The notes beneath the pieces are model-generated. The model ran no database searches. It was not told the origin of the DNA and worked only from the letters and a program-made list of their open reading frames with translations. Positions 1 to 51,230 of a DNA stretch of 64,000 nt are shown here, one piece after another; position 1 is the first letter of the stretch, and the number at the start of each line of letters is the position of its first letter. Source of the DNA: a virus; the IMG/VR virus record IMGVR_UViG_3300006802_000087, positions 1-64,000 of that record. The stretch is one strand, 5' to 3'. Made by a program: the position numbers and the translations under genes.

Positions 1-1374
1 ATTAAAGAGTCAGCGAGTAGAACTGCCGAAGAAGCAGGTGATGGAACTACAACAGCAACCGTCCTCGCCCAGTATATTTATAATGAAGGCCTTAAATACA
101 AAACTGCCGGGTTTGATGTTGCACTTCTAAAAGAAGGTATTGAATATGCACGCGATCAAGTTATTGATAATATCAGATCACAAGCATCTGAGGTAGGTTC
201 ACAAAAAGATCTTCTTAAAGTTGCAACAATATCAGCAAATGGTGAAGAAGAGATAGCAAAATTAATTGTTAATGCAATTGAAGCCGCAGGTCCAGACGGG
301 CATGTTATTGTAGAAGAGGCAAAGGGATTTAGCAGTTCCCTCACAGTTGTCGAAGGCTTCCAAATGGAACGAGGCTTTTTGTCTCCTTATTTTGTAACAG
401 ATAAAAATAAAATGGTTACAGAATTTAAAAAACCATTGATACTAATGGCTGACAGAAGTTTTACATCTATTCGAGAATTAATGAAACCACTCGAAATAGC
501 GTTGGAAATGGGAAGACCTATTGTGGTTATCGCCAATGAAATTGAAGGTGATGCAATGCAAGGTTTGGTTTTAAATAGAACAAAAGGGTCACTTCAAGTT
601 GCTGCGATTAAGTCACCAGGTTTTGGTGGGACAAGACATGACATGTTATTAGATCTAGAGTCGATTATCGGCGGTAAAGTAATAGATAGTGGTTTTGACA
701 TGACATCTTTTGAAATGGAAATGTTTGGTACATGTAAAAAAATTGTTATCCAAAAGTCTAAAACACTTATCATTAATGATGATAAAAAAACAGACACTGC
801 GCAAGACAGAATGAAAACAATTAAAGAACGATTAAATTATCCTGGGCTCACTAACGAAGAGAGGGCAGTTTTACGTTATCGACTACAACAACTTTCTGGA
901 GGTATTGCGATTTTAAGAGTAGGTGCAGCAACTGAATCAGAACTTATTGAAAGATATGACAGAGTTGATGATGCTCTCCATGCAACGCGTGCTGCAATTG
1001 AAGAAGGCGTGCTGCCAGGCGGAGGGATTGCTTTGTACGCAGCTTCAGACAATATCAAGGATATTACAAAGGACATGTTAGAAGAGGATTTTAAGACAGG
1101 ATATCAGCTCTTAAAGAATGCATGCGCGCAACCCTTTAGACAAATTTTAACGAATGCTGGGTTAAATCATACAAAAATAATGTCAAATATAAGATCAAAA
1201 AATGCAACAGGCTATGATGTAAGAAACAAAAGATTTGGAGATATGTTTGAATTAGGTGTGCTAGACCCTGCAAAAGTATCTCGTTGTGCGCTTGAAAATG
1301 CTGTGTCAGCTTCAACAATGTTGTTGCTTGCAGATTGCTCACTTATTGAAGTTAAAACAAATTTATCAGAATAG
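1..1374 (+). CDS. groEL: Chaperonin GroEL (5' end outside window)
   Basis: Frame from base 1 reads IKESASRTAEEAGDGTTTATVLA and is in frame with the 364..1374 ORF (RGFLSPYFVTD, KSPGFG, DDALHATRAAIEEGVLPGGG, GVLDPAKV). No GGM tail. Confidence 0.97.
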   Translation: MKESASRTAEEAGDGTTTATVLAQYIYNEGLKYKTAGFDVALLKEGIEYARDQVIDNIRSQASEVGSQKDLLKVATISANGEEEIAKLIVNAIEAAGPDGHVIVEEAKGFSSSLTVVEGFQMERGFLSPYFVTDKNKMVTEFKKPLILMADRSFTSIRELMKPLEIALEMGRPIVVIANEIEGDAMQGLVLNRTKGSLQVAAIKSPGFGGTRHDMLLDLESIIGGKVIDSGFDMTSFEMEMFGTCKKIVIQKSKTLIINDDKKTDTAQDRMKTIKERLNYPGLTNEERAVLRYRLQQLSGGIAILRVGAATESELIERYDRVDDALHATRAAIEEGVLPGGGIALYAASDNIKDITKDMLEEDFKTGYQLLKNACAQPFRQILTNAGLNHTKIMSNIRSKNATGYDVRNKRFGDMFELGVLDPAKVSRCALENAVSASTMLLLADCSLIEVKTNLSE

Positions 1375-1404
1375 TTATACATCGTATTGTTAATGTAGGT
1401 AAAT

Positions 1405-1734
1405 ATGTCTGAATATAAACTTCAAAGAAAAATAGCTACTGCCATTGTCACACTCAAAATTGAAAATGAAACCCATGTTCCAGACTTAATGACAAGGATT
1501 CGAATATTACCAGGCGTGGCTGTAGTTGGTCAAAAAGATAAGGTTGCAAGATTTTCAGATGGTGATGGAAGACTTAAGTTAAGCATAAAGTTTTTACCAC
1601 AATCTGAAGAGATATACTCGAGTCTTAAAGACATGTCCGGTCTAGTTAAAAAGTTACCTGGTGTAAAATCAATAGGTATTGAGAGTTTTAATAAGCGAAC
1701 AATTACAATGCAAGGTAAAAAAATAATTTTTTAA
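1405..1734 (+). CDS. Hypothetical protein
   Basis: 109 aa ORF; no GroES motifs. Confidence 0.6.
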   Translation: MSEYKLQRKIATAIVTLKIENETHVPDLMTRIRILPGVAVVGQKDKVARFSDGDGRLKLSIKFLPQSEEIYSSLKDMSGLVKKLPGVKSIGIESFNKRTITMQGKKIIF

Positions 1735-1790
1735 TGTAATTCTTGTTTTTTTTGGCTTATAATACTATTAAGCTTTCAAAGGAGGACATT

Positions 1791-2195
1791 ATGAGCTTAT
1801 ATTATAGTAAAAGTGATGATTTATTCAATACTTTTTTTGGAGATTCTAAACTTAAGTTTGGCAATTATTCAAGTTCAAAATTTAACGTGTATACAAAAAA
1901 GAACTCGACCGGTATTTTTATTGAAGTGTTGCTTCCTGGTTTTTCGAAGTCTGATATTTCATTAAAAACAAATGGTGAGACATTTACAATTGAATGTAAA
2001 AACTCAACAGTATCTAATGATCGAGAATATACTACACAACAATTTAATTCTCTAGAGAGATTTAAAAGAACATGGAACGTTCCAAAAAATTTTGACGTTG
2101 AAAACATTACAGCGTCGTATGATTCAGGCATTTTGACATTGTTTTTGCCAGAGTTTAAAAGAACTAGTTCATCTCGAACTATTAAAATTGATTAA
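1791..2195 (+). CDS. Small heat shock protein (Hsp20/alpha-crystallin)
   Basis: LPGFSKSDI, FKRTWNVP, ITASYDSGILTLFLP; GGAGG RBS before ATG 1791. Confidence 0.92.
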   Translation: MSLYYSKSDDLFNTFFGDSKLKFGNYSSSKFNVYTKKNSTGIFIEVLLPGFSKSDISLKTNGETFTIECKNSTVSNDREYTTQQFNSLERFKRTWNVPKNFDVENITASYDSGILTLFLPEFKRTSSSRTIKID

Positions 2196-2237
2196 ATTAA
2201 TTAATTTTTAAGTATAATTGCGTGGTTTGTTAAAAAA

Positions 2238-2265
2238 TGTAACGGCCGCGCAATTATTGTATAAT
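2238..2265 (+). promoter_or_regulatory. TGTAAC-N16-TATAAT promoter of the sigma gene; its -35 lies inside a 13-bp inverted repeat (2214-2257)
   Basis: tgtaac 2238, tataat 2260; arms ataattgcgtggt / gccgcgcaattat. Confidence 0.75.
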
Positions 2266-2304
2266 AATTAAGTAACCTATTAATTCTTAAGGAGAAAATA
2301 ACTT

Positions 2305-3039
2305 ATGTCACAAAACTTAGAAAGCTATTTTAGTTCAATAAAAAACAATACACGGCTATTAACAAAAGAAGAAGAAATATCTTTGGCAAAAAGAATTGAA
2401 AAAGGAGATAAACGCGCAAGAGATATTATGATTGAATCAAACCTTAGACTAGCAATATCTATTGCAAAAAAATATGCAAAATACGGTGGTAGTTTAGAAG
2501 ACTTAATTCAGGAAAGTAATATTGGTTTAATAACTGCAGTTGATAAATTCGATTGGCGAAAAGGTAATAAATTTTCTACTTATGCAACATGGTGGATTCG
2601 ACAGGCAGTTACACGTAGCTTGACGTCTGAAAGCACACTTTTAAAAGTTCCTTCTCATACACTCGCAAATTCTAGAAAGATTTGGCAATTTAAACAAGAT
2701 TACAGTGAAGAATTCGGTCGAGAACCTTCTATTGATGAAATCTGTACAGCCTTTGATCTTTCAGAAAAACATGTTAAAAATGCCATGGCTTCCTCTAAAG
2801 CAAAATTTACCTCTTCTTTAGATATGCAAATTGGTGATGAAGGAAACAGGACTTTAGCTGACATCATTCCAGATAACAATCAATCCATAGAAGAAATTAT
2901 AGACAATAAAAAAATAAAAGAATGTATATTAAACGCCCTTAAATCTTTGACAAAAAGAGAAGAACTAGTCTTAAGGTTAAGATTTGGTCTTGATGACTTA
3001 ACTGATGATGATGATAATATTTGCACAATTAACAACTAA
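2305..3039 (+). CDS. Sigma70-family factor (regions 1.2, 2, 3, 4.1; lacks region 4.2 HTH)
   Basis: LLTKEEEISLAKRI, NLRLAISIAKKY, DLIQESNIGLITAVDKFD, FSTYATWWIRQA, LTKREELVLRLRFGL then stop. Confidence 0.93.
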   Translation: MSQNLESYFSSIKNNTRLLTKEEEISLAKRIEKGDKRARDIMIESNLRLAISIAKKYAKYGGSLEDLIQESNIGLITAVDKFDWRKGNKFSTYATWWIRQAVTRSLTSESTLLKVPSHTLANSRKIWQFKQDYSEEFGREPSIDEICTAFDLSEKHVKNAMASSKAKFTSSLDMQIGDEGNRTLADIIPDNNQSIEEIIDNKKIKECILNALKSLTKREELVLRLRFGLDDLTDDDDNICTINN

Positions 3040-3963: not shown

Positions 3964-4302
3964 ATGTCTCAAAGTTGGCCCAAACCAGGCGTAGGTCATG
4001 TAGGTGAATATCAAGTATCAGGTCATGTCTTGCCAATAACAGGCTCGTCTGCTATTATTAATTTAAACTATTTAGCCAGTTCAATTACTGTTTCAGCAGT
4101 AGGCGGCACAGCTGAGATTACATTTTATGATAGCGGAAGCAATGCAGTCGGACACACTGTCCCTTCAGATGGAACTATACGATTTACTGGTAAATTCAAA
4201 AAGTTTAAAGTTGCATCTCCTGGAGACGCACTGGTTGAACTTACAAACATACCTGCTTCAAGCTATAATGCACCAATATTTACTGATCTGTTTACAGGGT
4301 AA
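3964..4302 (+). CDS. Putative virion protein, paralog of 16470..16886
   Basis: GVGHVGEYQVSG motif, beta-rich; AGGAG RBS. Confidence 0.55.
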   Translation: MSQSWPKPGVGHVGEYQVSGHVLPITGSSAIINLNYLASSITVSAVGGTAEITFYDSGSNAVGHTVPSDGTIRFTGKFKKFKVASPGDALVELTNIPASSYNAPIFTDLFTG

Positions 4303-4304
4303 AA

Positions 4305-4532
4305 ATGCCCTATAAAGTCGGCGACTTAGTTACAGTCAGAGAAAGGGGAGCATTGTCGTCTGACAATGCTTTTTCTTTTGGTATTGTCATTAAAGTTGAA
4401 GATATTGCAAAAACAAAAATATTAGATGATATGTGGAATACTAAAATATTTGAAAGGAAAACTTTGTACAAAGTAATTACAAACGGTAAAATTAAAACAT
4501 TAGATAACTACTTAATCAAAGGAAAAGCATGA
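4305..4532 (+). CDS. Small SH3/KOW-like protein
   Basis: YKVGDLVTV...FGIVIKV. Confidence 0.5.
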   Translation: MPYKVGDLVTVRERGALSSDNAFSFGIVIKVEDIAKTKILDDMWNTKIFERKTLYKVITNGKIKTLDNYLIKGKA

Positions 4533-5116
4533 ATATTTTTATTCTAGATCATGATCCTGCTAAAGCAGCAGAGTACCACTGCAATAAACACGTTGTCAAA
4601 ATGATATTAGAAGCAGGACAAATGTTGTGTGCAGCTCACTGGCTTCACCTACTTAAAAATTATTATGATGGTGATATAACAGATTTTAAGAGAGTGCGTG
4701 ATATACAAACGTGGCTTTATAAAAATACACACCCTCTCGAGCAACCACCTTGGAAATTATCACATATGCGTCACCCGTGCACGATTTGGACAAATGAATC
4801 ATATTCAAACTATATGTGGCACTGGCAATTAGGCGTATCACTTTGCAAAGAATATACAAAAAGATATAAAAAGGTTCATAAATCAGAAGTAGTATTAGAC
4901 TGGCTAGGTAAAAATACACCTCGTCTAATGAAAGATAAAGGGCTCACACCTTTTGCAATTTGTATGAAAGAAGAATATAAAGTGGGAGTCGATCCTATAC
5001 AAAGTTATCGTTCCTATTATATTAAAGATAAAGTTAGATTTGCTAAATGGGAGCCAAGATCAAATACTCCTGTCTGGTTTAAAACAGGAGTTCAAAATGA
5101 AAAAAACAAGCATTAG
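4529..5116 (+). CDS. Pyrimidine-dimer DNA glycosylase / DenV-like protein
   Basis: MNIFILD...HCNKHVVKMILEAGQMLC...HPCTIW...YRSYY. Confidence 0.85.
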   Translation: MNIFILDHDPAKAAEYHCNKHVVKMILEAGQMLCAAHWLHLLKNYYDGDITDFKRVRDIQTWLYKNTHPLEQPPWKLSHMRHPCTIWTNESYSNYMWHWQLGVSLCKEYTKRYKKVHKSEVVLDWLGKNTPRLMKDKGLTPFAICMKEEYKVGVDPIQSYRSYYIKDKVRFAKWEPRSNTPVWFKTGVQNEKNKH

Positions 5117-5317
5117 CCAAGAAGAGATTAATAGACTAGTAGAGATTAGAAGCTTTTTGATTAAAAATCACAGTCGTTACAGAGATTACAAAAGCAATAA
5201 AAATGCTATCATGAAAGAAACAGATCATATTTTAGTCGTTGAAAAAGCGATTAAAGATCTAGATCAATTTTTAAAAGAATACGTAGACTTTAAATAATAT
5301 AGATGTTTTTATTATAG

Positions 5318-5350
5318 AAGCCTTGATAATTATTTTATCGAGGTTTTTTT
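5318..5350 (+). terminator. Probable intrinsic terminator hairpin
   Basis: agccttgataa / ttatcgaggtt stem followed by a T run. Confidence 0.5.
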
Positions 5351-5864
5351 GCGTTTTCTAAGAGATAAATTTAAATATATTGTTTATAGTTTTGTTTTGG
5401 GACTAAGCATCGGAATCTTTTTAAAAGGTGTTTATCAATACACTGCTAAACAACCATGCAGTTGGAAGTCTAAGCCAATCATTATTAATTGTATTGGCCC
5501 TGAACTTGAAGAAGAAACAATTCAAAGAGCAATTGAATTTTGGTCGTCTCATGGTGAACATGTTCTTTTTTATGAATATGACATGTCTAAATCAATATGC
5601 AATCAAACAACTAGACTAGATGGGTTTATTCTTCTTAAAAAAGATGATGGGTTTATAAAGGAAGATAATGTACTTGCGTCAACTAAAAGATACACAAGTT
5701 ATATTACAACAATAGTTGCTAGTGAAATATACTTTAAAGAAGGTACTTATAATATTATTCTATTACTAGAGCATGAGTTTGGTCATGCTTTTGGCTATAA
5801 TCATAAAAAAATACCCGGCAATATCATGCACCCTTATTATGACCTGATGGGTGAAAAATTTTAA
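5349..5864 (+). CDS. Membrane-anchored matrixin-like zinc metalloprotease
   Basis: N-terminal TM segment, HEFGHAFGYNH and Met-turn IMHP. Confidence 0.85.
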   Translation: MRFLRDKFKYIVYSFVLGLSIGIFLKGVYQYTAKQPCSWKSKPIIINCIGPELEEETIQRAIEFWSSHGEHVLFYEYDMSKSICNQTTRLDGFILLKKDDGFIKEDNVLASTKRYTSYITTIVASEIYFKEGTYNIILLLEHEFGHAFGYNHKKIPGNIMHPYYDLMGEKF

Positions 5865-5865
5865 C

Positions 5866-6210
5866 CTATAAATAATATTGTACAGCTAATATAGACATTG
5901 CCAGAGCAACACTGAGTACGGTTTTAAGCGTAAACATTGTTTCGCCCATAAGATACCATGTAAGCATAGGAAAAACAAAATAAGATATTGCTGCTGCTAA
6001 AAATCTAACTGACCATAAGCTTTCCACGTTTTCATACGCAATTTTTGTACCGTACCAAAAAAATAAACCTGCAGGAGTACCAAAAAGAAGAGTTGCTAAA
6101 ATTGCTTTATCTTTCCAAAATTCCCATACAAACTGTGCATTTCCAGCAAACCATCCAAATACATGTCCAAGTATAAAGAGAAATGCAGATATCATAATTG
6201 GATTAATCAT
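5866..6210 (-). CDS. Small 4-TM membrane protein (SMR/DMT-like)
   Basis: Four hydrophobic helices in 114 aa. Confidence 0.6.
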   Translation of the reverse strand: MINPIMISAFLFILGHVFGWFAGNAQFVWEFWKDKAILATLLFGTPAGLFFWYGTKIAYENVESLWSVRFLAAAISYFVFPMLTWYLMGETMFTLKTVLSVALAMSILAVQYYL

Positions 6211-7363
6211 AAGGATTGTATTTCACCACAGTTGTAAAATGTACTGTCTCAGTTCCTGCAAAGTCGCTTGCTAATTTAAGTCCCCATCCAATAACATCAC
6301 CTTCAGAAAATGTTGCTCCTTCTCCCATAAAATCAAATGTATAAACCTGCCAGGCGACGTCTCCATTTAATGCAACCTCAGCTGTTGGTGTCGAGCTGTA
6401 TGAATTAGTTGTTCCAGATCCTTTGTGAAAGGAGCATGTTAGATCTGTTGTAGAGAAGTCAGTATTTGCTTTAACTTGAACTTTAATAACCTCACCTGAA
6501 AATGGCATAATTTGAAAATTGACAGAAGAAGGTCCTACACGCTCAGTAAAAGAATCTTCTGAAGGAAAATAAATTCTATCATATCCTGTTGCTGGGTTTT
6601 GAAAAAGACCATGGTCGACAGAATATATTCCACCAAGAACAATATCACCATTTTGATCTGTTATTCCTGCTGAACCGGTTATTTGGGATATAGTTACAGA
6701 CTCACCTTTTTTACTAATAACTTTTGTCATGTCGTTAGCAGTGTACCCTGCATCAACAGCGGTTTGTTCACTTGATACGCTGTTATTAATGGTCACGTTT
6801 GCTTTTTGCGATGCACTTCTTGGGACAACATCTATATCGACTGTGACATTTCCGTATATGGTCGAAAGCGTTTTAAAAGCGAATATAAAACCTGCTGTGG
6901 TTGTTTCTTTTGTCCATATTTGTGGCTCTATATACCTGTTGCCATTATATTCTTCATCATAGGAAGTTGACCAACTTAGATCTGGGAGTGGATCACCTGA
7001 TCTTAAAGCAGCATTAAAGTTTACAATGTGTGTTTCTCCGGCATTTTGTGCAGTAATTCTTCCAATGACTTGATAGTTTTGACTATTTGCATCTGGTATA
7101 ATAGTCAAAACTTTTTGATACTCGTTTGCTGAAAAATAAGATCCATTTGCATTACCTAAGTAATACTGGTTAAATTTCATTGTATTTGAATTAAAATATT
7201 CTACAGTGTTGTAAGTTGAAACCCCTTCAACTGAAATGTCTGTGCTGATATTTGCGCTCCCAGTTACAATCAAGCCATGTATATCATCACCTGCAGTTCC
7301 GTCTATAATGACGCCTTCATTAAATCGAGCTGTTGATGCTCCCATATTTTTTATTCTTGCCAC
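6203..7363 (-). CDS. Putative tail fibre / virion structural protein
   Basis: 386 aa, G/S/T/N-rich beta composition, VTGS motifs; AGGAG RBS. Confidence 0.55.
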   Translation of the reverse strand: MARIKNMGASTARFNEGVIIDGTAGDDIHGLIVTGSANISTDISVEGVSTYNTVEYFNSNTMKFNQYYLGNANGSYFSANEYQKVLTIIPDANSQNYQVIGRITAQNAGETHIVNFNAALRSGDPLPDLSWSTSYDEEYNGNRYIEPQIWTKETTTAGFIFAFKTLSTIYGNVTVDIDVVPRSASQKANVTINNSVSSEQTAVDAGYTANDMTKVISKKGESVTISQITGSAGITDQNGDIVLGGIYSVDHGLFQNPATGYDRIYFPSEDSFTERVGPSSVNFQIMPFSGEVIKVQVKANTDFSTTDLTCSFHKGSGTTNSYSSTPTAEVALNGDVAWQVYTFDFMGEGATFSEGDVIGWGLKLASDFAGTETVHFTTVVKYNPYD

Positions 7364-7429
7364 ATTATTCTCCTAATTGTTCTAGACTTTATTTATAATT
7401 ATAAACTAGATAACCAAAGGATAAAAAAC

Positions 7430-8431
7430 ATGCGCGCTAAAAAAGGTGAATGGTTTTCTCTTAAATGGGAACCAAGAGACTATTACGAGAAAGAATCTTA
7501 TAGACAACTCAAAAACTGTCCTAAGTTTGTTTGTGCCGAAAAAGATACAGAATCGATCACCCAAGAAATAGAAGAGTTATTCCCAAATTTACGAATTACA
7601 TCAGCAAACCTAGCCGTTGTTTTTGTTAAAGAAAAATCAGGCCTAAAGGTGCCTACGCATTATATGCCTGGTGAGTTTATGCCAGGTGACAATCCAAAAT
7701 ACGATAATTGGTTGACAGACTACTATACAGTTGATAGTGATTTTACTAATCAACTAAAAAATAGAAATACTGTTCAGCAAAAAACAATTTACCTTGAGCA
7801 CACTTCTAAGGTGATTAGACATGATATGCATAGCGGAATTAATACCTACATACCTCGTGGTCTTAAGGTGTTATTAGAAAAACTAGATGAAGATACAATT
7901 AAAAATCTTAAACTTAGAATTCCTTTAAAGCTTCTGGAAGAAGGTCTTAAGCATGCACAGCAAGTTTATAAAGGAGTTTATGCATTTACCAACCTAGTTA
8001 AAATAAAACCACAGGTCGAAAAAAATGTTTATAATTTAAAAGAAATTTTAGAAGAGTTTTTAGAAAAGTCTGCCTATAGGAAATATGTTAAAATTGAAGA
8101 CTTGCCTGAAAAAGAAGTTAATCCCGCGTTGTTTTGTATTGCTATTGACAATTTTATTAAGAATGGCGTGACATATAACGAAAGCAAAGAAAAATCTGTT
8201 AGAGTCTATATGAAATACAAAAATGTTCTTTGTATTGAGGACAATGGAATAGGTATGACTCAATATGAATACGACCTGCAATCTTTACCCTATATGAAAA
8301 CCGACATTGGAGACGAAGAAGCTTCTTTGGGAATGGGAATTAATATTGCAAATGCCATTATTGAGGAACATGGTTGGACTATACAGGTCAATAAACTAGA
8401 AAGAGGTACATCAATAGAGGTAGTTTTATGA
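7430..8431 (+). CDS. Soluble sensor histidine kinase
   Basis: H-box RHDMHSG, N-box AIDNFIKNG, G1 EDNGIGM, altered G2 SLGMG. Confidence 0.88.
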   Translation: MRAKKGEWFSLKWEPRDYYEKESYRQLKNCPKFVCAEKDTESITQEIEELFPNLRITSANLAVVFVKEKSGLKVPTHYMPGEFMPGDNPKYDNWLTDYYTVDSDFTNQLKNRNTVQQKTIYLEHTSKVIRHDMHSGINTYIPRGLKVLLEKLDEDTIKNLKLRIPLKLLEEGLKHAQQVYKGVYAFTNLVKIKPQVEKNVYNLKEILEEFLEKSAYRKYVKIEDLPEKEVNPALFCIAIDNFIKNGVTYNESKEKSVRVYMKYKNVLCIEDNGIGMTQYEYDLQSLPYMKTDIGDEEASLGMGINIANAIIEEHGWTIQVNKLERGTSIEVVL

Positions 8432-8616
8432 TAAAAAAGATATTTAAGTATATTAAGTGGTTTTTTGAACCATCACCGCATGATAGAAAATGTGCTGAAG
8501 CGTGTAAAAAAATTCAATCACTAAAAATAGAGTATGTAAAAAACCCAAGCGAGACATTAAAAAATGAAATTAAAAGACTTGAAAAGTTATGTGAAGAAAA
8601 ATATACTGACGGATAG
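8428..8616 (+). CDS. Small hypothetical protein within the kinase cluster
   Basis: ATGA overlap with kinase 1; GAGG RBS. Confidence 0.5.
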   Translation: MIKKIFKYIKWFFEPSPHDRKCAEACKKIQSLKIEYVKNPSETLKNEIKRLEKLCEEKYTDG

Positions 8617-9520
8617 AGTTAGCGCTCAATCTAAAGTTTGTCTTTCTTTAGCAATAACAATAATGGGAATGTTTTTTTGTGTCCAAAGTCTTATTGTCTT
8701 TAAAGTTATTAAGTCATCATATTTGACTGCGCTATTTGGTTATGCATGCATTTTGCTGTTTACTCCGCCTTTTGCGATGTTTGTTAAAACATTTATAGAT
8801 AGAGTAAACAGCAATGAAATAAAACTTCTTGAAGAAGTGATGGAAAAAAATACTTATTTGGAGCATGCTGCTAAAATTCTTAGACATGATATGCACAGCG
8901 GAATTAACACCTATATACCTCGAGGACTTAAGTCTTTAGAGCGAAGGTTAGATAAAAGCTTAATTAAAGAAAAAAAGCTAGAGTCACCTTTGAAACTCTT
9001 GCGAGAAGGCTTAGCCCATTCACAACAAGTATATAGAGGTGTTTATGAATTTACTAACCTTGTTAGAAAAGATGCGACACTTCAAATAATACCAGTTAAC
9101 ATAAAAGAGGCACTAGAGAGTTATCTAAAAAGAACATCATACAAAGATCAGGTCTTAATTGAAAGTTTGCCTGAAGTTTGCATTAATGAGTCTCTTTTTT
9201 GTACAGCTATTGATAATCTCATAAGAAACGGTCTTAAATATAACGACAGTGATACTAAATGGGTTAAAATAAAAATGTTAGATAAAGACACAATGGCCAT
9301 CATTGACAATGGAAGAGGTATGTCTCAAAAAGATTTTGACAAATTAATGTTGCCTTATTCGAGAAAAAAGAATCAAAAAGAAGAAGGGACGGGATTAGGG
9401 CTTAATATTTGCGTAGCAATTTTAAACGAACATGGTTTTAGTATTTCTTGCGAAAAACTAGAGCAAGGAACAATGATAAGGATAAATTTCAATGATAAAT
9501 TCTATACTTTTAGTGGATGA
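8564..9520 (+). CDS. Membrane histidine kinase (2 TM)
   Basis: Two TM segments, RHDMHSG, AIDNLIRNGLKYN, DNGRGM, GTGLGL. Confidence 0.92.
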   Translation: MKLKDLKSYVKKNILTDRVSAQSKVCLSLAITIMGMFFCVQSLIVFKVIKSSYLTALFGYACILLFTPPFAMFVKTFIDRVNSNEIKLLEEVMEKNTYLEHAAKILRHDMHSGINTYIPRGLKSLERRLDKSLIKEKKLESPLKLLREGLAHSQQVYRGVYEFTNLVRKDATLQIIPVNIKEALESYLKRTSYKDQVLIESLPEVCINESLFCTAIDNLIRNGLKYNDSDTKWVKIKMLDKDTMAIIDNGRGMSQKDFDKLMLPYSRKKNQKEEGTGLGLNICVAILNEHGFSISCEKLEQGTMIRINFNDKFYTFSG

Positions 9521-9923
9521 CGAAAACTTATTTCATCTTGTCTTTGAGGACGCTTGTTCTCTTTTAGATATTACACTTAATCTCGAGTCGTTAACGTCAG
9601 CCGACGAAGCTGCTAAGCTTTTTGATCAGTGGCAAGGCAAACCTGATCTTAAACCTGATTGTGTATTTGTTGATCTTAATATAATTGGTTCATCATTTAA
9701 CGGAATTGAACTAGTTCGTAAAATCAATTACGAATACGGCAATGGCGTGGTTGTTGGAATTATCTCATCGTCAGCAGACAAAGAAGAGATGGGGAAAGCA
9801 ATACAGGCAGGTGCTCAATTTTGGATTGTTAAGTCTGATGATATTGAGCCACGTCTAGAAGAGTTTAAAAAAGATTACGATGGCTATGTCAACAGAACAA
9901 ATTCATGGAAAGTATATAAATGA
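9492..9923 (+). CDS. Single-domain response regulator (receiver only)
   Basis: ILLVDDE, VFVDLNI (phospho-Asp), ISSS, IVKS. Confidence 0.92.
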   Translation: MINSILLVDDENLFHLVFEDACSLLDITLNLESLTSADEAAKLFDQWQGKPDLKPDCVFVDLNIIGSSFNGIELVRKINYEYGNGVVVGIISSSADKEEMGKAIQAGAQFWIVKSDDIEPRLEEFKKDYDGYVNRTNSWKVYK

Positions 9924-10495
9924 AAATTAAGCTTTGTCCAGAAGATAAGAAGCAGCTGTTAGACATTGCAGAAAGCCGCAGAGTGCATTTAGAGGGAAAC
10001 ATTGTTAAGTTAATTGACCCTGAAGACGACAATGATTTTAAAGTATATCTGCAAACATGTCAAGAAAAAGACACAGATAACAGAAAGAAAAGATTGGAAA
10101 TAACGCGCCAAGTTCAAGATCAGAATAAAGAATTAGAAGAAAAGGCAAAAGAAAATGACACTTTAATGATTGATCTTAAAGAAGCACTTAAAGAAGCAGA
10201 AGGAGCAAAAGAAGCTGCTGTTAACGATCTAGACTTGATGCAGAAGAAGACTCAGTTTGAATTAATTGGTAATATAGTTAATGTGGCACTTTGGATAATT
10301 GTTGGAGTTGGTATCATGACAACTATTTTATATATGACTGCGCTATTTACAAAGGGATCTGGCGCTGATACAACACTTATTGGCAATACCTGGTCGAATT
10401 TGCTCGGTATACTACTAACAAACTCTTTTAGTATTATAGGCACCATTATGGGTGTCAAGTACGCTAGTGAAAATAGCAAGAAGGAAGAAAAGTGA
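9920..10495 (+). CDS. Coiled-coil protein with two C-terminal TM helices
   Basis: ATGA overlap with the response regulator; heptad region then two hydrophobic helices. Confidence 0.7.
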   Translation: MKIKLCPEDKKQLLDIAESRRVHLEGNIVKLIDPEDDNDFKVYLQTCQEKDTDNRKKRLEITRQVQDQNKELEEKAKENDTLMIDLKEALKEAEGAKEAAVNDLDLMQKKTQFELIGNIVNVALWIIVGVGIMTTILYMTALFTKGSGADTTLIGNTWSNLLGILLTNSFSIIGTIMGVKYASENSKKEEK

Positions 10496-14004: not shown

Positions 14005-14392
14005 GGGCCCGTAATGGCTTCGACGGAATAGAATCAAGGGGAGAATGCAAGCAGGGAAGATACGCCCTTAACAGTTCAAATTTTATAGTTGCAAATAATA
14101 ACGCACACTTCGATTCAGTAGCAGTAGCTGCTTAATTGACGCCGGTATCTCTTCCGGTGCAAAACAAGAGGTTAGTCAGATGGGTGAGACGAAAAATTAT
14201 AAGGGAGTCTAGCGGACTTTGCCGACACCTAAAATGGTTATCCACGTGGTATGTGGTGGAACTCAAGGTTACCTAGAGTTGGTGGAAAGAGGTGGCTATC
14301 CTTGTTATCAGGAGAAAAACGATAACTAAGCTTGTGAACGACTCAAACTAAGACTATTGCGGACGCGGGTTCGACTCCCGCCGGGTCCACCA
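14005..14392 (+). ncRNA. ssrA: tmRNA
   Basis: 5' GGGCCCG..TTCGAC; 3' T-arm GGTTCGACTCC and CGGGTCC-ACCA; G3:U70 pair; tag ORF 14091-14135 ANNNAHFDSVAVAA*. Confidence 0.96.
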
Positions 14393-45237: not shown

Positions 45238-45265
45238 TGTAATTGCTAAAATATGTTGGTATAAT
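45238..45265 (+). promoter_or_regulatory. TGTAAT-N16-TATAAT promoter of the tRNA cluster
   Basis: Motif 45 nt upstream of tRNA-Leu. Confidence 0.7.
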
Positions 45266-45309
45266 ATAAACATATAAATAAGATCTTTTAAATTGTTAGA
45301 TTAATAAAA

Positions 45310-45393
45310 GCCTTGATGGTGAAATTGGTAGACACGCAAGACTTAAAATCTTGTTTCCGCTAGGAAGTACCGGTTCGATTCCGGTTCAAGGCA
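45310..45393 (+). tRNA. tRNA-Leu(UAA), CCA not encoded
   Basis: GCCTTGA/TCAAGGC acceptor, CAAGA-CTTAAAA-TCTTG, long variable arm, GGTTCGATTCC. Confidence 0.93.
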
Positions 45394-45397
45394 TTAT

Positions 45398-45474
45398 GCA
45401 CCCGTAGCTCAGCTGGATAGAGCATCCGCCTTCTAAGCGGACGGTCACAGGTTCGAATCCTGTCGGGTGTACCA
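45398..45474 (+). tRNA. tRNA-Arg(UCU)
   Basis: TCCGC-CTTCTAA-GCGGA; ends ACCA. Confidence 0.96.
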
Positions 45475-45666
45475 CTTTGATATAACCGGGAATACGCTCC
45501 TCGTCCCCAGTTTTTATTTATGAGATGTTAGGACTATCTCGGTTATATCTTTTTTTAAAGAATGCAAGGGGGCTTCCTGAGGCGGGTCAGTCTTAAACGA
45601 TGGTAATCCCAGGTGTACCGATAATCGCGAAGATATGTCGGAGATATCACGCCCTTGCTTCTATGA

Positions 45667-45743
45667 TGCGGGATGGAGCAGTTGGTTAGCTTGTCGGGCT
45701 CATAACCCGAAGGTCGGGGGTTCGAATCCCTCTCCCGCACCCA
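45667..45743 (+). tRNA. Initiator-type tRNA-Met(CAU)
   Basis: TCGGG-CTCATAA-CCCGA with three consecutive G:C pairs; ends CCA. Confidence 0.93.
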
Positions 45744-45774
45744 TTTTAAACAAACGAGTAACAAGAGAAAACAA

Positions 45775-46056
45775 ATGAGAATTTTAATATTACTATCTTA
45801 TATAGGCTGTACACAGCACGTTCATACAAAAGACATTAACAAAGTCAATGTGGGAATGTCATATGATACCACAACACGAATCTTAGGGGAGCCTAATAAA
45901 GTGGTAAATAATTCTATAAGGGTATATCAAGGTACAGAAACTGCATACAATCATGAAGTTTTATTGTACAGATCACACTCAAATGCATCTGAGTCTCTTA
46001 GAGATTGTTATCTGATATTTACAGATAAAGTTTTAAGAGAAGTGAATTGTTTTTAA
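45775..46056 (+). CDS. Small lipoprotein, SmpA/OmlA(BamE)-like
   Basis: LLSYIGC; KVNVGMSYDTTTRILGEP. Confidence 0.65.
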   Translation: MRILILLSYIGCTQHVHTKDINKVNVGMSYDTTTRILGEPNKVVNNSIRVYQGTETAYNHEVLLYRSHSNASESLRDCYLIFTDKVLREVNCF

Positions 46057-46064
46057 TGTTATTT

Positions 46065-46137
46065 GGGCACTTGGCGCAGCGGTTAGCGCAGGGAACTCAT
46101 AATTCTTTGGTCGTAGGTTCAAATCCTACAGTGCCCA
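46065..46137 (+). tRNA. tRNA with CAU anticodon, probably Ile2 (lysidine, reads AUA)
   Basis: GGGCACT/AGTGCCC acceptor; CTCATAAT..TTGGTCG body resembles ileX. Confidence 0.85.
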
Positions 46138-46245
46138 CTTTACTATCAATGCTCTGGGTTAGGTTAAAACTGCCGGTCGGATTAGGGCATTGATATAAAA
46201 CTCCTTGGTTAATCCGACCGGCACCCTTTTTAATTGGAGATAAAA

Positions 46246-46542
46246 ATGACAGAACAAGAATACGAAAACGCAGTTAAAGACAAAAACGTCGTAGTACAAT
46301 TTTCAGCAAATTGGTGCGGCCCATGCAAGACTGTAACACCAATTTTAGAAAATCTAACTAGTCAGCTAGATGTTGATTATCTTAAAATTGATATTGGTGA
46401 GTCGCCTGAGCTAGCGAGAAAGCTAGGGATACGAAGCATTCCGCATATCTTATATATTAAGGATGGCCTAGTTGAAGAAGAAGTGACAGGTGCCAGACCA
46501 AGCGATCACTTTTTAAAATTGTTAAAGGAGAGTTACGGATAA
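46246..46542 (+). CDS. trxA: Thioredoxin
   Basis: WCGPC, IRSIP. Confidence 0.92.
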   Translation: MTEQEYENAVKDKNVVVQFSANWCGPCKTVTPILENLTSQLDVDYLKIDIGESPELARKLGIRSIPHILYIKDGLVEEEVTGARPSDHFLKLLKESYG

Positions 46543-46616
46543 TGATATCTATTTTATCAGTTATAACTTTTGTATTCGTATTCGTATGGGGATGGCTTAA
46601 GCTTTTCGGAGAATAA

Positions 46617-46898
46617 ATGAACGACAAACCTTACACACACCTTCAAGTTTCTACTAACTCTTTTATTAGAACATTTGAGTCAGATGTTAATCCCGAAGAT
46701 TTGGTCTGGCATCGTGATGAAAGAGAAAGACTAGTCTACGTTATCCACGTTGGTTCTGGTTGGTCTTTCCAGCGAGATAACCAGTTACCACAAAAAATGG
46801 TTTCAAATGAAACTGTAATAAGAATTAAAGCTGAGGAGTACCATCGTATCATTAAAGGTGAAGGTGTATGTGTGCTCTATATTGAGGAGAAATTTTAA
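46617..46898 (+). CDS. Cupin-like conserved phage protein
   Basis: LVWHRD...YHRIIKG. Confidence 0.6.
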   Translation: MNDKPYTHLQVSTNSFIRTFESDVNPEDLVWHRDERERLVYVIHVGSGWSFQRDNQLPQKMVSNETVIRIKAEEYHRIIKGEGVCVLYIEEKF

Positions 46899-47387
46899 TG
46901 TCGACAATCAAAAATTATTTAACCACTGCATGGACTTGGGTATATGATAGAACTCCGCTCTGGATTATTCTCTTGTTTGGATATGCAACATTCATGGGTG
47001 TTCTAAATGAAAGCACACAAGCATCAAGAACTAATCAAGAAACAATCAACTGTAAAACAGCATGTACACCAAGCGCTTCAGAATATCTTTCTCAAAAAGA
47101 ATTTGATAAATGCTGGTGTTACAAAGACAAAAACACACTCATTAGACTCCAAGATGTCACTCCAACAACGAATTAACTCAATGGCTGGTGGTTGTCATGT
47201 CGATATTAATAATCTAGAAGTGATAAGAATAATACCACGGCTAGATATATGCGTCATTAAAATACTCGATATGCCAGTTGCAATTTCACTTAATGAATAT
47301 AAAAAGTTAACACAAAATGTAATTAAATAAATTACACTATATACTAATAATACACAACAATAATACAACACACAAAAAGGAGACAAT

Positions 47388-47693
47388 ATGTCAGCAAACT
47401 TAGCACTTATGTGCAAATCTCAAAACTATACAAAAAGTAATAACGGAGAATACCGAGTAGGAAACTGGGTTATTTCAGAGTCGAAGCGCAAAGAATTACT
47501 AGGTGCCAACGTTATTCTTACAACAACACAGCGATCACCTGCTTATTTAGGTGGTAAAATCGTAGGTTTCAATCCTACACAAAATGGAAAGAAATGTGAA
47601 GTAATCTTTAAAGAAGACAGCACACTTTCTGGAAATACAGACGCAGTAGGTCATCGAGGCTGGGGTACCGGTCGAAGTGTCTGCTATATTTAA
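47388..47693 (+). CDS. Hypothetical early protein
   Basis: Own promoter at 47318; AAGGAG RBS. Confidence 0.65.
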   Translation: MSANLALMCKSQNYTKSNNGEYRVGNWVISESKRKELLGANVILTTTQRSPAYLGGKIVGFNPTQNGKKCEVIFKEDSTLSGNTDAVGHRGWGTGRSVCYI

Positions 47694-47706
47694 AAAAGGA
47701 GAAGAT

Positions 47707-48094
47707 ATGAAATTAATGTTAATTCCATTCGCATTTCTTTTAGCTTGTTCGGGCAAAACGTCAGAATCAGTTAATACTCAGAATGCAAAAACAGAGACAA
47801 CAGAAACAACAGAAACGAAATCAGATGAAAAATCAAGTGAGGCAACGTCTGATCAAAGTACTTCTGACAATACAGAAGAAAAAACACAAACGGTTGAAGA
47901 AACCAAGGAAGAGACTAATGACTAGTTTGCTTATGACATTATTTTTAGCTTGCGGCGATAAAGAAGAAGAACAGGATACAGCAGTTGAAGAGGTTGAAGA
48001 TACTGAAACAACTGAAAATACTGAAGCAGAAGATACATCAGAGTCGTCTGACCCTGTAGAAGAAGAAGACACAGCAACAGAAACAGCTGAATAA
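47707..48094 (+). CDS. Two small acidic lipoproteins (47707..47925, 47918..48094)
   Basis: FLLAC and LFLAC lipoboxes followed by E/T/D-rich tails. Confidence 0.7.
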
Positions 48095-48985
48095 TATAAA
48101 AGCTGTTGATTAATTAACAATACAAAACTAGGAATATATTATGGCTGAAATTATCGACATACGTGAGGCAATTAAAGCAAGACAAAATGAAAGATTAGAG
48201 AAAGTTAAATCAGATCTAGATCATGAAATTGACTTATTGGATCTTTCAATTGACGAAATATTAACTAGTTTTGTATTTCCGTTTGTTTTACCTTCACTAT
48301 ATGAAAACAATTCTGAAAAAGATTTGGAGTTTGAAAATGATTATTGCGTATTTCTACTTAATCAAATATCAAACTCTTTTAAAGATAAAGATATTCAAAA
48401 TGACATCAAAAATTTAATCAACAAAATCAATTTAAAAGGAATAGAAAAATGACACACGGTCTTAAAGATAGAGTTGTCCTTAAAGAACAGGACATTAAAA
48501 GAGCAGGGTTTAAAGTAAAAGGAACAATTGTTAAGCTTTATAAAGGAAAGAGAGGTTCTATTAAAACTTGCGGTGTTTTATGGGACAATGAATGGCCTGT
48601 TACAAACAGCAAGGTAAAGAATGATCGATATACATCGGGTAAGGTTTTTTATTATAAACCTGAAGACCTAGATATTGTTGACACTTGGAGTTTGGACTAA
48701 TGTCAAATCGCTGGGACGATGATAAGATCATTGACATTACTCCTAGGGTAAATAAAAATGGCAATTCTTTGCATCAGGATGATATACCTATTGAGATAAA
48801 TAGACGTATTTCTGAAAGAATTCAGAGAGAACATAGAGAAAAGACAAGAAAACTATATGTCGACTCTATGTTGACAATCTTATTCTCGCTCCAGCTTATA
48901 ATAGTTTTGGTAATATTTTTATTTTTACTTTAATTATTAAGTTTTCGAATGATAATTATAATGAACAGCAAGGATGGTTGTAATT

Positions 48986-49675
48986 ATGAGATTATCTCGA
49001 AAACAATTAAGAGAAGCTATTTCTCTTCAAATGAAAAATCATATTTTTGAGACATCAAAAGATCGGATTGATATTGACAAAGACACAAAAATAGATGACG
49101 CAGCGCCTGGCAGATCAATAAGCGATTTAGGTCTACCATCAATTGACATAGAAGATTCTGATGATAGAGATGAAATTGAAGGTATGATGTTTGATGATGA
49201 AGAAATGTCGCATACAGAGTCTGAAACAGATTGGAATCCTATGTCAAGCATTAAATTTCCAGTTCCGGGAGACAGACCTTCATTCCACGATCCTAGAGGT
49301 AGAACACCAGATCAAATTAGAGCGGATGTACACGGTATAGCTGATGAGTTAGAAAGCAGAATTCCTAAGAAGCCAGGCAAGTCTAAGAACCAAAAAGAAG
49401 GAGAGTTTATTGAAGAGCTGGAAAAGCTTTTAGGTAAGACAGGCCCACTCGGCCCTGACGACTTTCATACTGATCCTGAGTTTGGACCTTTAACACCTCC
49501 ATTCGACACGGGTTTGCCTGATATACCAGCGCCATCAATGGAAGACACAGTTGAGTTAGATCCGGATCGATTTAGAAAAGGACTACCGAATGACAATGAT
49601 CCTACCAAGCCTTTAGACGAGGCAATTCGCAGAGTTATCAGAAGAGAAATTCGCAAAAGACTTCAAAGAATGTAA
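48986..49675 (+). CDS. Doubly tagged acidic/Pro-rich protein
   Basis: MRLSRKQLREAI...IFE; ends LDEAIRRVIRREIRKRLQRM. Confidence 0.72.
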   Translation: MRLSRKQLREAISLQMKNHIFETSKDRIDIDKDTKIDDAAPGRSISDLGLPSIDIEDSDDRDEIEGMMFDDEEMSHTESETDWNPMSSIKFPVPGDRPSFHDPRGRTPDQIRADVHGIADELESRIPKKPGKSKNQKEGEFIEELEKLLGKTGPLGPDDFHTDPEFGPLTPPFDTGLPDIPAPSMEDTVELDPDRFRKGLPNDNDPTKPLDEAIRRVIRREIRKRLQRM

Positions 49676-49974
49676 AATCATTTCTGCTTCTGTATAATAC
49701 AATATAACATTAAACATAGGCAGAAAAATGAAAGGTAAAATTGGTTCTCTGTGTGAGAGTACTCAATACATATCAGGCTGGCATTTGTCTGATAGTATCA
49801 AAGACCCGGGATGGCTCACAACACACATCGAGCCCAGAACACAATTTATAATTACAGATATCAAAGAGTGTAATGAAACAGGTATTATTGAAATTGTTTT
49901 ATTTTTCAATAATTCTTTATTCACTGCGCAATTTAATAATCGAGATGATCAATATTTTCCATGGAGAGTGTTAA

Positions 49975-50241
49975 GTGAACAATAAATGGTATGTTTATAT
50001 TGTCGAATGTGCTGACGGATCTTTTTATACCGGCATCACAATAGACTTAGATCGTCGTCTTAACGAACATAACTATTCGTTTAAACTAGGCGCTAAATAT
50101 ACACGTAGTCGAAGACCGGTAAGACTAGTCTATAAAGAAGAAAAACTTGATCGATCTGACGCGTCTAAAAGAGAAGCACAGATCAAACGCTATACGCGCA
50201 ATAAAAAACTCGAATTAGTCAATTCACAGAAACAACAATAA
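49975..50241 (+). CDS. GIY-YIG nuclease (YhbQ-like)
   Basis: YVYIVECADGSFYTGIT..RRLNEHN, AKYTR. Confidence 0.92.
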   Translation: MNNKWYVYIVECADGSFYTGITIDLDRRLNEHNYSFKLGAKYTRSRRPVRLVYKEEKLDRSDASKREAQIKRYTRNKKLELVNSQKQQ

Positions 50242-50298
50242 AATGTAAACTCGAGCCTATCTTGTTATAATAATATAAACAAATAGCAGGTAAGAGAA

Positions 50299-50907
50299 AT
50301 GGAATGTAAAGACAAATTAAAATTGTATTCTTTTAAAGAACTTGATCAGGTAATTCAAGACAATATAATATCTGAATATATAGAAAATTATTCTTATGGC
50401 TGGTGGCTCGAAGATGTAATTAACAAAATTGAAAACGAGTCGAAATGTTACAGGCTTAAAAATTTTGAGTTTTCATGTAGGGGATTTTTCGCAGACAAAA
50501 GTAATGTAAAATTTACCGGTGAGCTCAGTCTTCTTGATGGATTAGAAACAATTTATCACTTAAAAGATACAGAGTTTAACATGCACCAGGAATGCATTGA
50601 TACACTCAAGTTATCTCAACAAAAGAAAATAGATATTAAGTTTTTGTTTAATGACAATGCTCCGTCATATGAATTTAATATAAATTCTAGACTAGAACCG
50701 GTTCAGTTTAATAAAATAAAATACTTGTTGACACATTCTACTTTTATGTTAGATATCTGGTACAACGCAATCATAGATAGATGGTACGAATATATTATTG
50801 ATGCACAACCTGAAGATTTTGCATCTTTTCAAAATAAGACTGAGTTAATAAATGACTTAAATACATGTGGAAAAGTATTTGACATCAATGGGAAAAGACA
50901 CAAATAA
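50299..50907 (+). CDS. Divergent paralog of 60383..60943
   Basis: YSFKEL, FEFSCRGF, FTGELS, GKVFD. Confidence 0.6.
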   Translation: MECKDKLKLYSFKELDQVIQDNIISEYIENYSYGWWLEDVINKIENESKCYRLKNFEFSCRGFFADKSNVKFTGELSLLDGLETIYHLKDTEFNMHQECIDTLKLSQQKKIDIKFLFNDNAPSYEFNINSRLEPVQFNKIKYLLTHSTFMLDIWYNAIIDRWYEYIIDAQPEDFASFQNKTELINDLNTCGKVFDINGKRHK

Positions 50908-51230
50908 GAGAATACATACAAATGTTCAACGGAGAAAACATGGAAAAACACATTATCACAATCGAAATAACATCTAACATTGACCCAAGTACTTTGTTAT
51001 CATTAGCAATTACATGTGCTGAACAATTAGCACAAGAAATAGAAGATCATGGTAATGATGTAACTTTTGATGACAATGACGTAGTAGTAGAATCAGACAT
51101 TGTCGACGATTGACACTGGTTTGGTGTAGGTCTGGCATTCTGAGGAGTGAGCAGACTGAGGTTGGGCTACGGTATTTATTTATGTAACAACAGTAATTGC
51201 CTAGTATAATAGTACTATTAGGAGGCAATA

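Follow-up and report, generated by a model that had tools for sequence, protein, structure and literature searches.

Two-component systems are regarded as a cellular hallmark, and phages are known to exploit or perturb the signalling of their hosts. Here we describe a gene cluster of an uncultured jumbo phage which, as judged from its sequence and relatives, is a phage-owned circuit with many inputs and one receiver, and not a recently acquired host operon. The cluster lies at positions 7430-10495 of a 64,000-nucleotide stretch of DNA (positions 1 to 64,000 of the IMG/VR virus record IMGVR_UViG_3300006802_000087; the whole stretch is referred to as the window) and codes for two histidine kinases, HK1 and HK2, a stand-alone receiver, RR, and a membrane protein, CCTM, in which a coiled coil ends in a hairpin of two transmembrane (TM) segments. 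The window represents 64 kb of a 75.8-kb record for which CheckV gave a completeness of ∼37%, which places the full genome near 200 kb. We consider it very likely that the cluster is a functional, self-contained phage two-component system.

The closest solved sequence match of the kinase core is HK853 of Thermotoga maritima (E=6e-12), a class I kinase built of DHp and CA domains that has an adjacent stand-alone receiver, RR468 (PDB 2C2A, 3DGE). The phage cluster has the same basic composition, but differs from HK853-RR468 in its divergent H-box (RHDMHSGIN), in having two kinases per receiver, in its viral setting and in its dedicated membrane protein. We know of no output for RR468 itself. HK2 resembles the intramembrane-sensing kinases of the BceS/LiaS type in being shorter than 400 amino acids (aa) and in having two TM segments joined by a loop of ∼9 residues (<25 aa) and no cytoplasmic input domain. 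However, no ABC transporter, LiaF-like gene or DNA-binding receiver is present in the window cluster or in related loci, and the relationship of HK2 to these kinases is no closer than that of a generic kinase core. RR can be compared with the single-domain receivers of the CheY-FliM, DivK-DivL, Spo0F and Rcp1/RphyB systems (PDB 3ilh and 4zyl, the solved structures nearest to RR), with which it shares a length of ∼140 aa taken up by the receiver alone, an S93/W111 switch pair and a conserved alpha4-beta5-alpha5 face. It differs from these as a member of a phage-specific subfamily, in which the C-terminal tail is invariant, and in that its candidate partner is novel.

In staphylococci the two-component system LytSR is connected with Cid/Lrg, membrane proteins that resemble holins or antiholins, and with murein hydrolase activity (PMC2996381). 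LytSR is, however, cellular; LytR is a transcription regulator with a LytTR DNA-binding domain and LytS is a multi-TM 5TM-Lyt sensor, whereas RR has no DNA-binding domain and would act post-translationally. Homology is limited to generic domains, and Pfam found no LytSR-type domain (5TM-Lyt, His_kinase or LytTR) in the window proteins. In the lysis inhibition of phage T4 the antiholins RI and RIII act on the holin T (PMC11413866). The resemblance is one of proposed logic, i.e. the sensory input of a phage retunes lysis time through protein contact with a membrane protein from its lysis cassette. There is no homology, and T4 lysis inhibition is direct antiholin-holin binding triggered by superinfection, without phosphotransfer; the lysis role proposed for CCTM comes from the gene neighbourhoods of relatives. 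A comparative survey of jumbo phages covers only a different receiver, which is not linked to a kinase (PMC7824862), and an exact-phrase search of the literature gave no description of a complete, dedicated His-Asp circuit run by a phage with its own output protein. New here is that the two-component system is encoded by a virus, joins many inputs to one receiver and has a novel membrane-hairpin protein at its end.

Two kinases and one receiver

The cluster consists of five co-oriented open reading frames (ORFs) on the plus strand, which overlap one another as an earlier note on this DNA had described. HK1 (7430-8431, 333 aa) is followed by a small ORF (8428-8616, 62 aa), HK2 (8564-9520, 318 aa), RR (9492-9923, 143 aa) and CCTM (9920-10495, 191 aa); the successive overlaps are 4, 53, 29 and 4 nucleotides (nt), and CCTM overlaps the gene at 10492 by a further 4 nt. 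A scan of IMG/VR with HK2 gave at least 595 confirmed stretches, some of them on contigs of 150-250 kb, and 80 loci were kept for mapping (loci are numbered L001 and so on below, L001 being the closest relative).

Both kinases match the Pfam HATPase_c domain above its cut-off of 26.4 bits (HK1 42.3 bits, E=1.2e-10; HK2 59 bits, E=7.3e-16), and the stretch that the earlier note had reported as shared between them is indeed present in both as an identical 17-mer, RHDMHSGINTYIPRGLK. In an alignment of 18 HK2-type and 5 HK1-type sequences the H-box helix (YLEH..K..RHDMHSGIN.Y.PRG) is invariant, its His being His131 in HK1 and His108 in HK2. The invariant RHD motif lies in the helix directly upstream of the CA domain, and the N box (DNLIRNGLKYN) and G1 box (DNGRGM) are conserved. 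An AlphaFold2 (AF2) model of HK1 had a predicted local distance difference test score (pLDDT) of 78.8, with least confidence in the ATP-lid region (residues 289-298) and a pLDDT of only ∼60 for the DHp region of the monomer. The core fold of this model matches class I DHp-CA structures, with Z=15.1 for the RpBphP2 kinase domain (8f71) and Z=13.7 for HK853-RR468.

The two kinases differ at their N-termini. HK1 has no predicted TM segment and starts with an alpha/beta domain (the N-domain, residues ∼1-85) that is confidently modelled (pLDDT ∼90). An exhaustive HMMER search found this domain in 14 of 1.84 billion representative proteins, always N-terminal on kinases of the HK1 architecture or on fragments. 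When 28 members were searched against Pfam the only match was DUF3006 (3 of the 28, E=0.002), and Atlas scores were below 0.8, both of which are at noise level. The domain is therefore still unrecognised, as the note had it, and would appear to be an orphan sensor domain. HK2 has TM segments at ∼27-45 and ∼48-66, an outer loop of ∼9 residues, and no HAMP, PAS or GAF domain on the cytoplasmic side, where His108 follows ∼35 residues past TM2. Topology prediction thus agrees with the description of HK1 as soluble and of HK2 as a two-TM kinase with almost no external sensor.

HK1 also differs from HK2 in its G2 box, which reads SLGMG in place of the complete GTGLG of HK2. The alteration is real, since the first Gly is absent from all 5 aligned HK1-type orthologues. 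Among the 80 mapped loci HK1-type kinases are restricted to the nearest relatives, L001-L003, and to L023, where the gene is on the opposite strand. In a tree of catalytic cores they form a single clade (100/92) on long branches outside all other kinases, with HK1 core branches 3-4 times longer than those of HK2, and HK1 is therefore an old, fast-evolving paralogue. HK1 did not arise by a recent duplication of HK2. These features raise the question of whether HK1 is a second input at all, or a degenerate paralogue that serves mainly as a phosphatase of RR or as a non-catalytic heterodimer partner of HK2. The missing Gly, the long core branches and the less confidently modelled ATP lid would all fit such a role, and the identical H-box helix in the DHp domain would permit heterodimers. 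However, 28 HK1-type proteins all retain the H-box His and the N and G1 boxes without change. The ratio of nonsynonymous to synonymous substitution rates (dN/dS) of HK1 against its three nearest relatives is 0.10-0.23 (HK2, 0.07-0.12), and the N-domain is conserved and confidently folded, as would be the case for a sensor. We regard a degenerate HK1 as decidedly unlikely.

RR matches the Pfam Response_reg domain (42.8 bits, cut-off 30.2 bits, E=6.7e-11) and has Asp61 as its phospho-acceptor. Across 29 homologues the acidic pocket (D9, D10 and D61), S92-94, W111 at the aromatic switch position and K114 are invariant, and the Ser/Thr plus aromatic switch pair, S93 and W111, is intact. Pfam and NCBIfam match the receiver part only, and past beta5 there are just alpha5 and a tail of ∼15 aa. 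RR is thus a complete receiver without a DNA-binding domain, as had been claimed, with a full acidic pocket in a single domain of 143 aa. It is the most conserved gene of the module, with 79% mean column identity in its alignment (A1), and compared with L001 it has 92% amino-acid identity at 78% nucleotide identity. Its alpha-1 (LFHLVFED), its alpha4-beta5-alpha5 face and its C-terminal tail are invariant; the invariance of the face and tail would indicate a conserved protein partner.

A fixed interface, variable inputs and viral ownership

The order kinase-RR-CCTM was found in every long related viral locus (40+), with identities of 52-70% for the kinase, 63-92% for RR and 43-78% for CCTM and with unrelated flanks. 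Junctions between kinase and RR overlap or span at most 20 nt in 47 of 52 distinct arrangements, as do those between RR and CCTM in 40 of 48. All four genes (HK1, HK2, RR and CCTM) are under purifying selection, with dN/dS of 0.04-0.23 against the three nearest relatives, where synonymous sites are saturated. The cluster, recurring in hundreds of viral contigs with dN/dS of ∼0.04-0.23, is not a chance arrangement.

Intact host operons as the closest homologues would, according to the earlier note, have refuted its reading, and the closest homologues found are not of this kind. The best NCBIfam scores were 54.9 bits for the kinase and 33 bits for the receiver, each against a cut-off of 250, and no curated cellular family exceeded ∼1/5 of its cut-off. 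A motif scan for the RR family in one genome per species (185,579 species) gave four hits, all of which were contigs of metagenome-assembled genomes (MAGs) assigned to four different phyla, and all of which carried the module. L083, whose flanks match PHROG families strongly (E down to 4e-130), is a phage contig that was binned wrongly, and the flanks of L084 and L086 are unclassified. The fourth, L085 (CANIVF010000058.1, a Bacteroidetes MAG), has at positions 4100-7481 a kinase with three PAS domains, an RR with 69% identity to that of the phage, and a protein that joins the CCTM head and coil to a HisKA+HATPase_c kinase core. Its flanks are cellular and comprise two proteins with C-terminal sorting domains of the type IX secretion system (T9SS cargo), a CHU_C-type Ig protein and CreD (E=2e-146), with no PHROG matches.

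L085 is what speaks for a recent capture of a host operon that would have no role specific to the phage. Against this, no member of the RR family was found in a sample of 60 other genomes from the bacterial family of L085, and the L085 kinase nests within the phage clade (99/97, in a tree that is midpoint-rooted only). In addition, a CCTM profile matched at least 6,776 clusters (at 90% identity) in a collection of 5.8 billion proteins, all of them metagenomic or viral, the Atlas neighbours of CCTM are 100% viral, and the module shows deep divergence under purifying selection within phages. Capture of a host operon is thus largely refuted, and we consider it very improbable. L085 is most simply read as the result of one transfer of the phage module into a Bacteroidota genome, although the tree on which this direction rests is midpoint-rooted only.

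Within the module the kinases vary greatly at their N-termini, and the forms found were 2TM only (∼295-320 aa), soluble PAS, 3xPAS, 2TM+PAS, 2TM+GAF+PAS, TM-periplasmic domain-TM, and the HK1 N-domain. On the core tree they are intermixed and require 12 changes, where 5 would be the minimum, and sensor domains have therefore been exchanged or lost repeatedly. The H-box helix, which is identical in HK1 and HK2, and alpha-1 of RR are in contrast invariant across phages with GC contents of 35-48%. In studied two-component systems these are the surfaces that set kinase-receiver specificity, and paralogous kinases serving different receivers normally diverge at the specificity positions. A frozen interface combined with varied inputs is the pattern expected when many sensors, HK1 and HK2 included, feed one receiver. 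The idea of a self-contained phosphorelay put forward in the earlier note therefore stands in so far as the unit is maintained by phages, but the arrangement is two kinases to one receiver and not a His-Asp-His-Asp chain.

The same invariance bears on whether the module interferes with host signalling, either through kinases that act on host regulators or through an RR that drains phosphate from host kinases, the latter being another suggestion of the note. RR lacks an output domain, like phosphate sinks, and two kinases with distinct inputs could act on host pathways. There is also a precedent, in that other phage proteins perturb host two-component systems (PIT4; PMC10714779). However, phages spanning this range of GC contents probably infect different hosts, and surfaces that target a host should track the host, since host surfaces would differ between hosts; the invariant specificity helix and alpha-1 instead look as they would in a closed cognate pair. 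Known sinks come with a second, output-bearing receiver, and none is present in the cluster. Interference with the host would also leave the co-conserved third gene, CCTM, unexplained. A drain of host phosphate is accordingly disfavoured, and we consider host interference of either kind improbable.

One further family was seen beside the kinases of related loci. FAM6, a 66-aa protein with two TM segments and a GFCP....GKCG motif (L032:3872-4072 and 42 other loci), lies immediately upstream of the kinase and in the same orientation, only where the kinase is of the 2TM-only class. It is absent from the window and is a candidate co-sensor of the 2TM-only kinases.

The membrane protein CCTM and a possible link to lysis

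CCTM begins with a small, conserved head (residues 1-37). In the AF2 model (pLDDT 82.6) this is followed by a single helix (38-144), which forms a stalk and continues as TM1, and then by a tight turn and TM2. The TM segments (119-137 and 161-179) are C-terminal, behind the long helix, and the predictions agree with the earlier picture of a membrane coiled-coil partner. The CCTM alignment (A2) further reveals a basic segment, RRKRLEITKQVQ.QNKEL, and, depending on the lineage, 0-60 inserted residues of coiled coil. The hairpin is predicted to be N-in/C-in, with TM helices rich in Gly, Ser and Thr; TM2 is nearly invariant and polar (WSN..GILLTNSFSI.GTIMG), contains small-xxx-small motifs and is followed by a charged C-terminal tail. 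A profile search of the PDB gave chance coiled-coil matches only and Foldseek gave nothing at E≤0.001. No CCTM cluster in the large protein collection carries a Pfam domain, and the names in the source databases are generic or mutually inconsistent automatic labels.

CCTM is retained, with its hairpin conserved, in loci where the sole kinase is fully soluble (L022 and L083), which a role as the intramembrane partner of a membrane kinase would not by itself explain. The gene that follows RR in L085 codes for the CCTM head and basic coil (44% identity, residues 10-104), with a kinase core (HisKA 25.4 bits, HATPase_c 72.4 bits) in place of the hairpin. An N-terminal coiled coil ahead of the DHp domain is the entry point of input signals in kinases. 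The CCTM head and stalk would thus behave as a portable signal-receiving module able to drive either a membrane hairpin or a kinase. The retention of CCTM in L022 and L083 and the fusion in L085 favour RR acting on the CCTM head, and the coupling of the RR and CCTM genes, together with the invariant alpha4-beta5-alpha5 face and C-terminal tail of RR, fits binding of phosphorylated RR (RR-P) to the CCTM head or stalk. We regard a position of CCTM on the output side of RR as probable.

CCTM could instead be placed on the input side, as a membrane co-sensor or scaffold for the kinases comparable to LiaF for LiaS or BceAB for BceS. RR-P would then have its target elsewhere, e.g. a protease adaptor, the transcription machinery, the motility apparatus or a host kinase. 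Known intramembrane-sensing kinases depend on accessory membrane proteins, and HK2 has the architecture of such a kinase. The polar, nearly invariant TM2 of CCTM would suit helix-helix contact within the membrane, and bacterial stand-alone receivers have many kinds of target. This arrangement is at odds, however, with the loci in which CCTM accompanies only a soluble kinase, with the position of the head and coil in L085, which is that of a signal-receiving module, with the coupling of the CCTM gene to RR and not to a kinase, and with FAM6, a different two-TM protein that is the one to track the 2TM-only kinases. We consider an input-side CCTM unlikely, and likewise a target of RR-P elsewhere.

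With CCTM on the output side, the whole pathway that we propose is a phage-owned, many-to-one two-component circuit in which RR acts through CCTM to bring about a membrane change tied to lysis timing, and we give it a probability of about one half. HK2 would presumably read a membrane or envelope cue and HK1 a cytoplasmic cue through its orphan N-domain. Each would autophosphorylate on the His of the identical H-box, and phosphate from both would pass to Asp61 of the single receiver. RR-P would then act by protein contact, its likeliest partner being the cytoplasmic head and basic stalk of CCTM, the gene for which is translationally coupled to that of RR. The continuous helix of stalk and TM1 would carry the change into the polar two-TM hairpin. 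The event most likely to be controlled would be a change in the host inner membrane tied to lysis timing, with CCTM acting like a holin, an antiholin or a holin regulator. The phosphotransfer, the RR-CCTM binding and the membrane or lysis effect are inferences.

The evidence for lysis comes from the genes around the trio of kinase, RR and CCTM in related loci. All ORFs of 85 loci were clustered into families, and lysis genes were counted in 31 de-replicated loci with at least 3 kb on each side. Recurrent neighbours of the trio, among them endolysins and small holin-like TM proteins, were (i) an endolysin with PG_binding_1 and GH19 domains (phrog_181, E=7e-67), (ii) a second endolysin-like family (phrog_3000; phrog_33083, E=3.5e-10), (iii) a 141-aa protein at the threshold of Phage_holin_4_1 (21.9 bits, threshold 22.2 bits), and (iv) two-TM proteins of 87 and 66 aa, a 115-aa multi-TM protein and YceI. 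An endolysin-type gene was found within 3 kb of the trio in 11 of the 31 loci, and these 11 represent several kinase clades and differing arrangements. The chance expectation for a single endolysin gene in a genome of 150-200 kb is ∼3-6%, and since the loci are not phylogenetically independent this is to be read as enrichment and not as a probability. Of the traits of class II holins CCTM has two TM domains and a charged tail, but its long cytoplasmic N-terminal domain is atypical for them. The suggestion of the earlier note that the cluster serves lysis timing or membrane sensing has contextual support from relatives, but near the cluster in the window there is no recognisable lysis gene. No such gene is recognisable in the 75.8 kb of this genome either, and the lysis link rests for this genome on relatives only. 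We name lysis timing as the controlled process only tentatively.

YceI was also noted for its distribution, in that a YceI-like protein, i.e. one of the lipid- or polyisoprenoid-binding type (Pfam E=1.6e-43), adjoins the trio in lineages with GAF-PAS kinases (L070:6284-6808 and 6 other loci).

Several observations weigh against the proposed pathway. On the kinase side, the H-box regions of HK1 and HK2 have no match to Pfam HisKA (PF00512), and HK1, which lacks the first Gly of the G2 box and has evolved at 3-4 times the rate of HK2, may act chiefly as a phosphatase or modulator instead of as a kinase. On the output side, CCTM has no Pfam, PHROG or NCBIfam match and hence belongs to no described holin family, and its 115-aa N-terminal cytoplasmic domain is atypical for holins. 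No longer proteins with sensors fused to the CCTM hairpin were found, although this was a single-sequence search and is weak evidence. In some relatives other genes lie between RR and CCTM, with gaps of up to 1.7 kb. As for lysis, 20 of the 31 de-replicated loci have no endolysin-type gene within 3 kb, and no homologue of the endolysin- or holin-like neighbour families was found in the 75.8 kb (∼37%) of this genome.

A bolder version of the proposed pathway can be formulated for the family as a whole. In this version modular kinases with membrane, PAS, GAF, periplasmic or orphan inputs would, throughout a very widespread, phage-only pathway, feed an ultra-conserved receiver. Once phosphorylated, this receiver would hold the head and stalk of CCTM, by which a membrane lesion would be gated or blocked, and virulent jumbo phages would time lysis by phosphorylation in response to the condition of the infected cell. 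We consider this version doubtful; were it correct, the window would hold its two-input form, with one envelope and one cytoplasmic input.

Flanking genes, genome setting and significance

The small ORF between the kinases starts in an ATGA overlap with the HK1 stop codon and overlaps the HK2 start by 53 nt. It has only a weak PHROG match (E=5e-4) and no Pfam match. At the same position L001 has a 75-aa ORF that also starts in an ATGA overlap and is homologous in its C-terminal half, which ends in TDG, and L002 and L003 have no space for such an ORF. It is probably a real small gene specific to this sub-lineage.

Between HK1 and a divergent minus-strand gene (6203-7363) lies an intergenic region of 66 nt (7364-7429), a candidate bidirectional promoter or operator. 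It contains at 7392-7405 a perfect 14-bp palindrome, TTTATAATTATAAA, by which each strand has a TATAAT, and the palindrome may serve as bidirectional promoter or operator for the two genes. A scan for the sigma-70 consensus did no better than with shuffled sequences. A strong class of promoter-like elements, AAATGTAAC-N14/15-GTATAATATAA, occurs in ∼30 copies at 45-73 kb (window 45260-63350; G000 64276-73192), with none upstream of the cluster, where there is a weak AT-rich ATAATTA element common to other genes at 1-45 kb. Each copy of the strong class precedes a short gene whose leader is rich in C and A and whose ribosome-binding site is GGAG, and the region of these copies has a GC content of 42-47% and resembles an early-gene array.

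Downstream, the cluster runs into genes with a shared N-terminal tag, as the earlier note had seen. The gene at 10492 starts with MKITKRQL, and the tag MKIT[KR][RSK]QL..LI is present on at least 10 otherwise unrelated ORFs of the genome (10492-12207, 12219-13946, 14411, 18790, 19523, 21007, 21451, 22410 and 48974 in the window; G000 73606). The tagged genes at 10492 and 12219 are full-length paralogues. No convincing terminator was found between the cluster and these two genes, which may therefore be co-transcribed with it, and neither has an annotated PHROG or Pfam match that would bear out their description as virion genes in the earlier note. In L001 a tagged 255-aa gene (L001:9346-10113) sits between RR and CCTM. 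The tag may be a packaging or processing signal. A transfer-messenger RNA (tmRNA; 14005-14392, Rfam RF00023, 103 bits, predicted tag peptide ANNNAHFDSVAVAA) lies directly 3' of the tagged paralogue pair.

Upstream of the cluster, positions 5866-6210 (minus strand) code for a 114-aa protein with four TM segments, a member of the 115-aa multi-TM family mentioned above (FAM11), which recurs beside the trio. In L001, L002, L004, L015 and L039 a FAM11 gene directly adjoins the trio, and 11 of 62 unique loci have one within 3 kb. Among cultured phages, homologues of the window protein were found only in Flavobacterium phages; they are SMR-like genes named 'multidrug transporter' and stand in an unrelated context among nucleotide-metabolism genes. 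The protein may be an accessory membrane component, its membership of the module being uncertain. Next to it (5349-5864) is an M10-like (matrixin-like) zinc metallopeptidase with a TM anchor at its N-terminus and the motif HExxHxxGxxH (Pfam 31.8 bits), which is kept upstream of the module in L001 and L002 and has no homologue among cultured phages; it may be an envelope-acting enzyme. The remaining neighbour of the cluster in the window is a 386-aa protein without recognised family.

The window has a GC content of ∼35% and almost all of its genes are on one strand. GroEL (phrog_5725, E=3e-112), Hsp20 and an RpoD-like sigma factor (phrog_351, E=1e-63) are grouped at its start (1-3039), and it also codes for a DNA helicase, an ATP-dependent ligase, a match to phrog_1645 ('virion structural protein') and, besides the tmRNA, four tRNAs. 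PADLOC found no defence or anti-defence system. A blastn search with the cluster region found no relative among cultured phages, and tblastn against cultured phages gave only generic HATPase matches for HK2 and nothing for RR. The best cultured-phage match of the window helicase is only 37% identical, and the lineage therefore stays uncultured. Two features are particular to the window: its second kinase is soluble and carries an orphan sensor domain, and lysis genes are absent from the surroundings of the cluster.

Among the phage gene families of aquatic metagenomes that are still uncharacterised, that of this circuit is one of the larger. Thousands of uncultured phages from aquatic settings have the circuit, often next to genes for lysis. 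The frozen interface and the exchangeable sensors make it a natural, compact chassis with a common output, and they make phage sensing during infection testable. Phages with the module probably sense the state of the infected cell, perhaps in order to time lysis. If control of lysis proves correct, the circuit would be a new, tunable mechanism for lysis timing, on which burst size and the dynamics of phages and their hosts in lakes and oceans depend.

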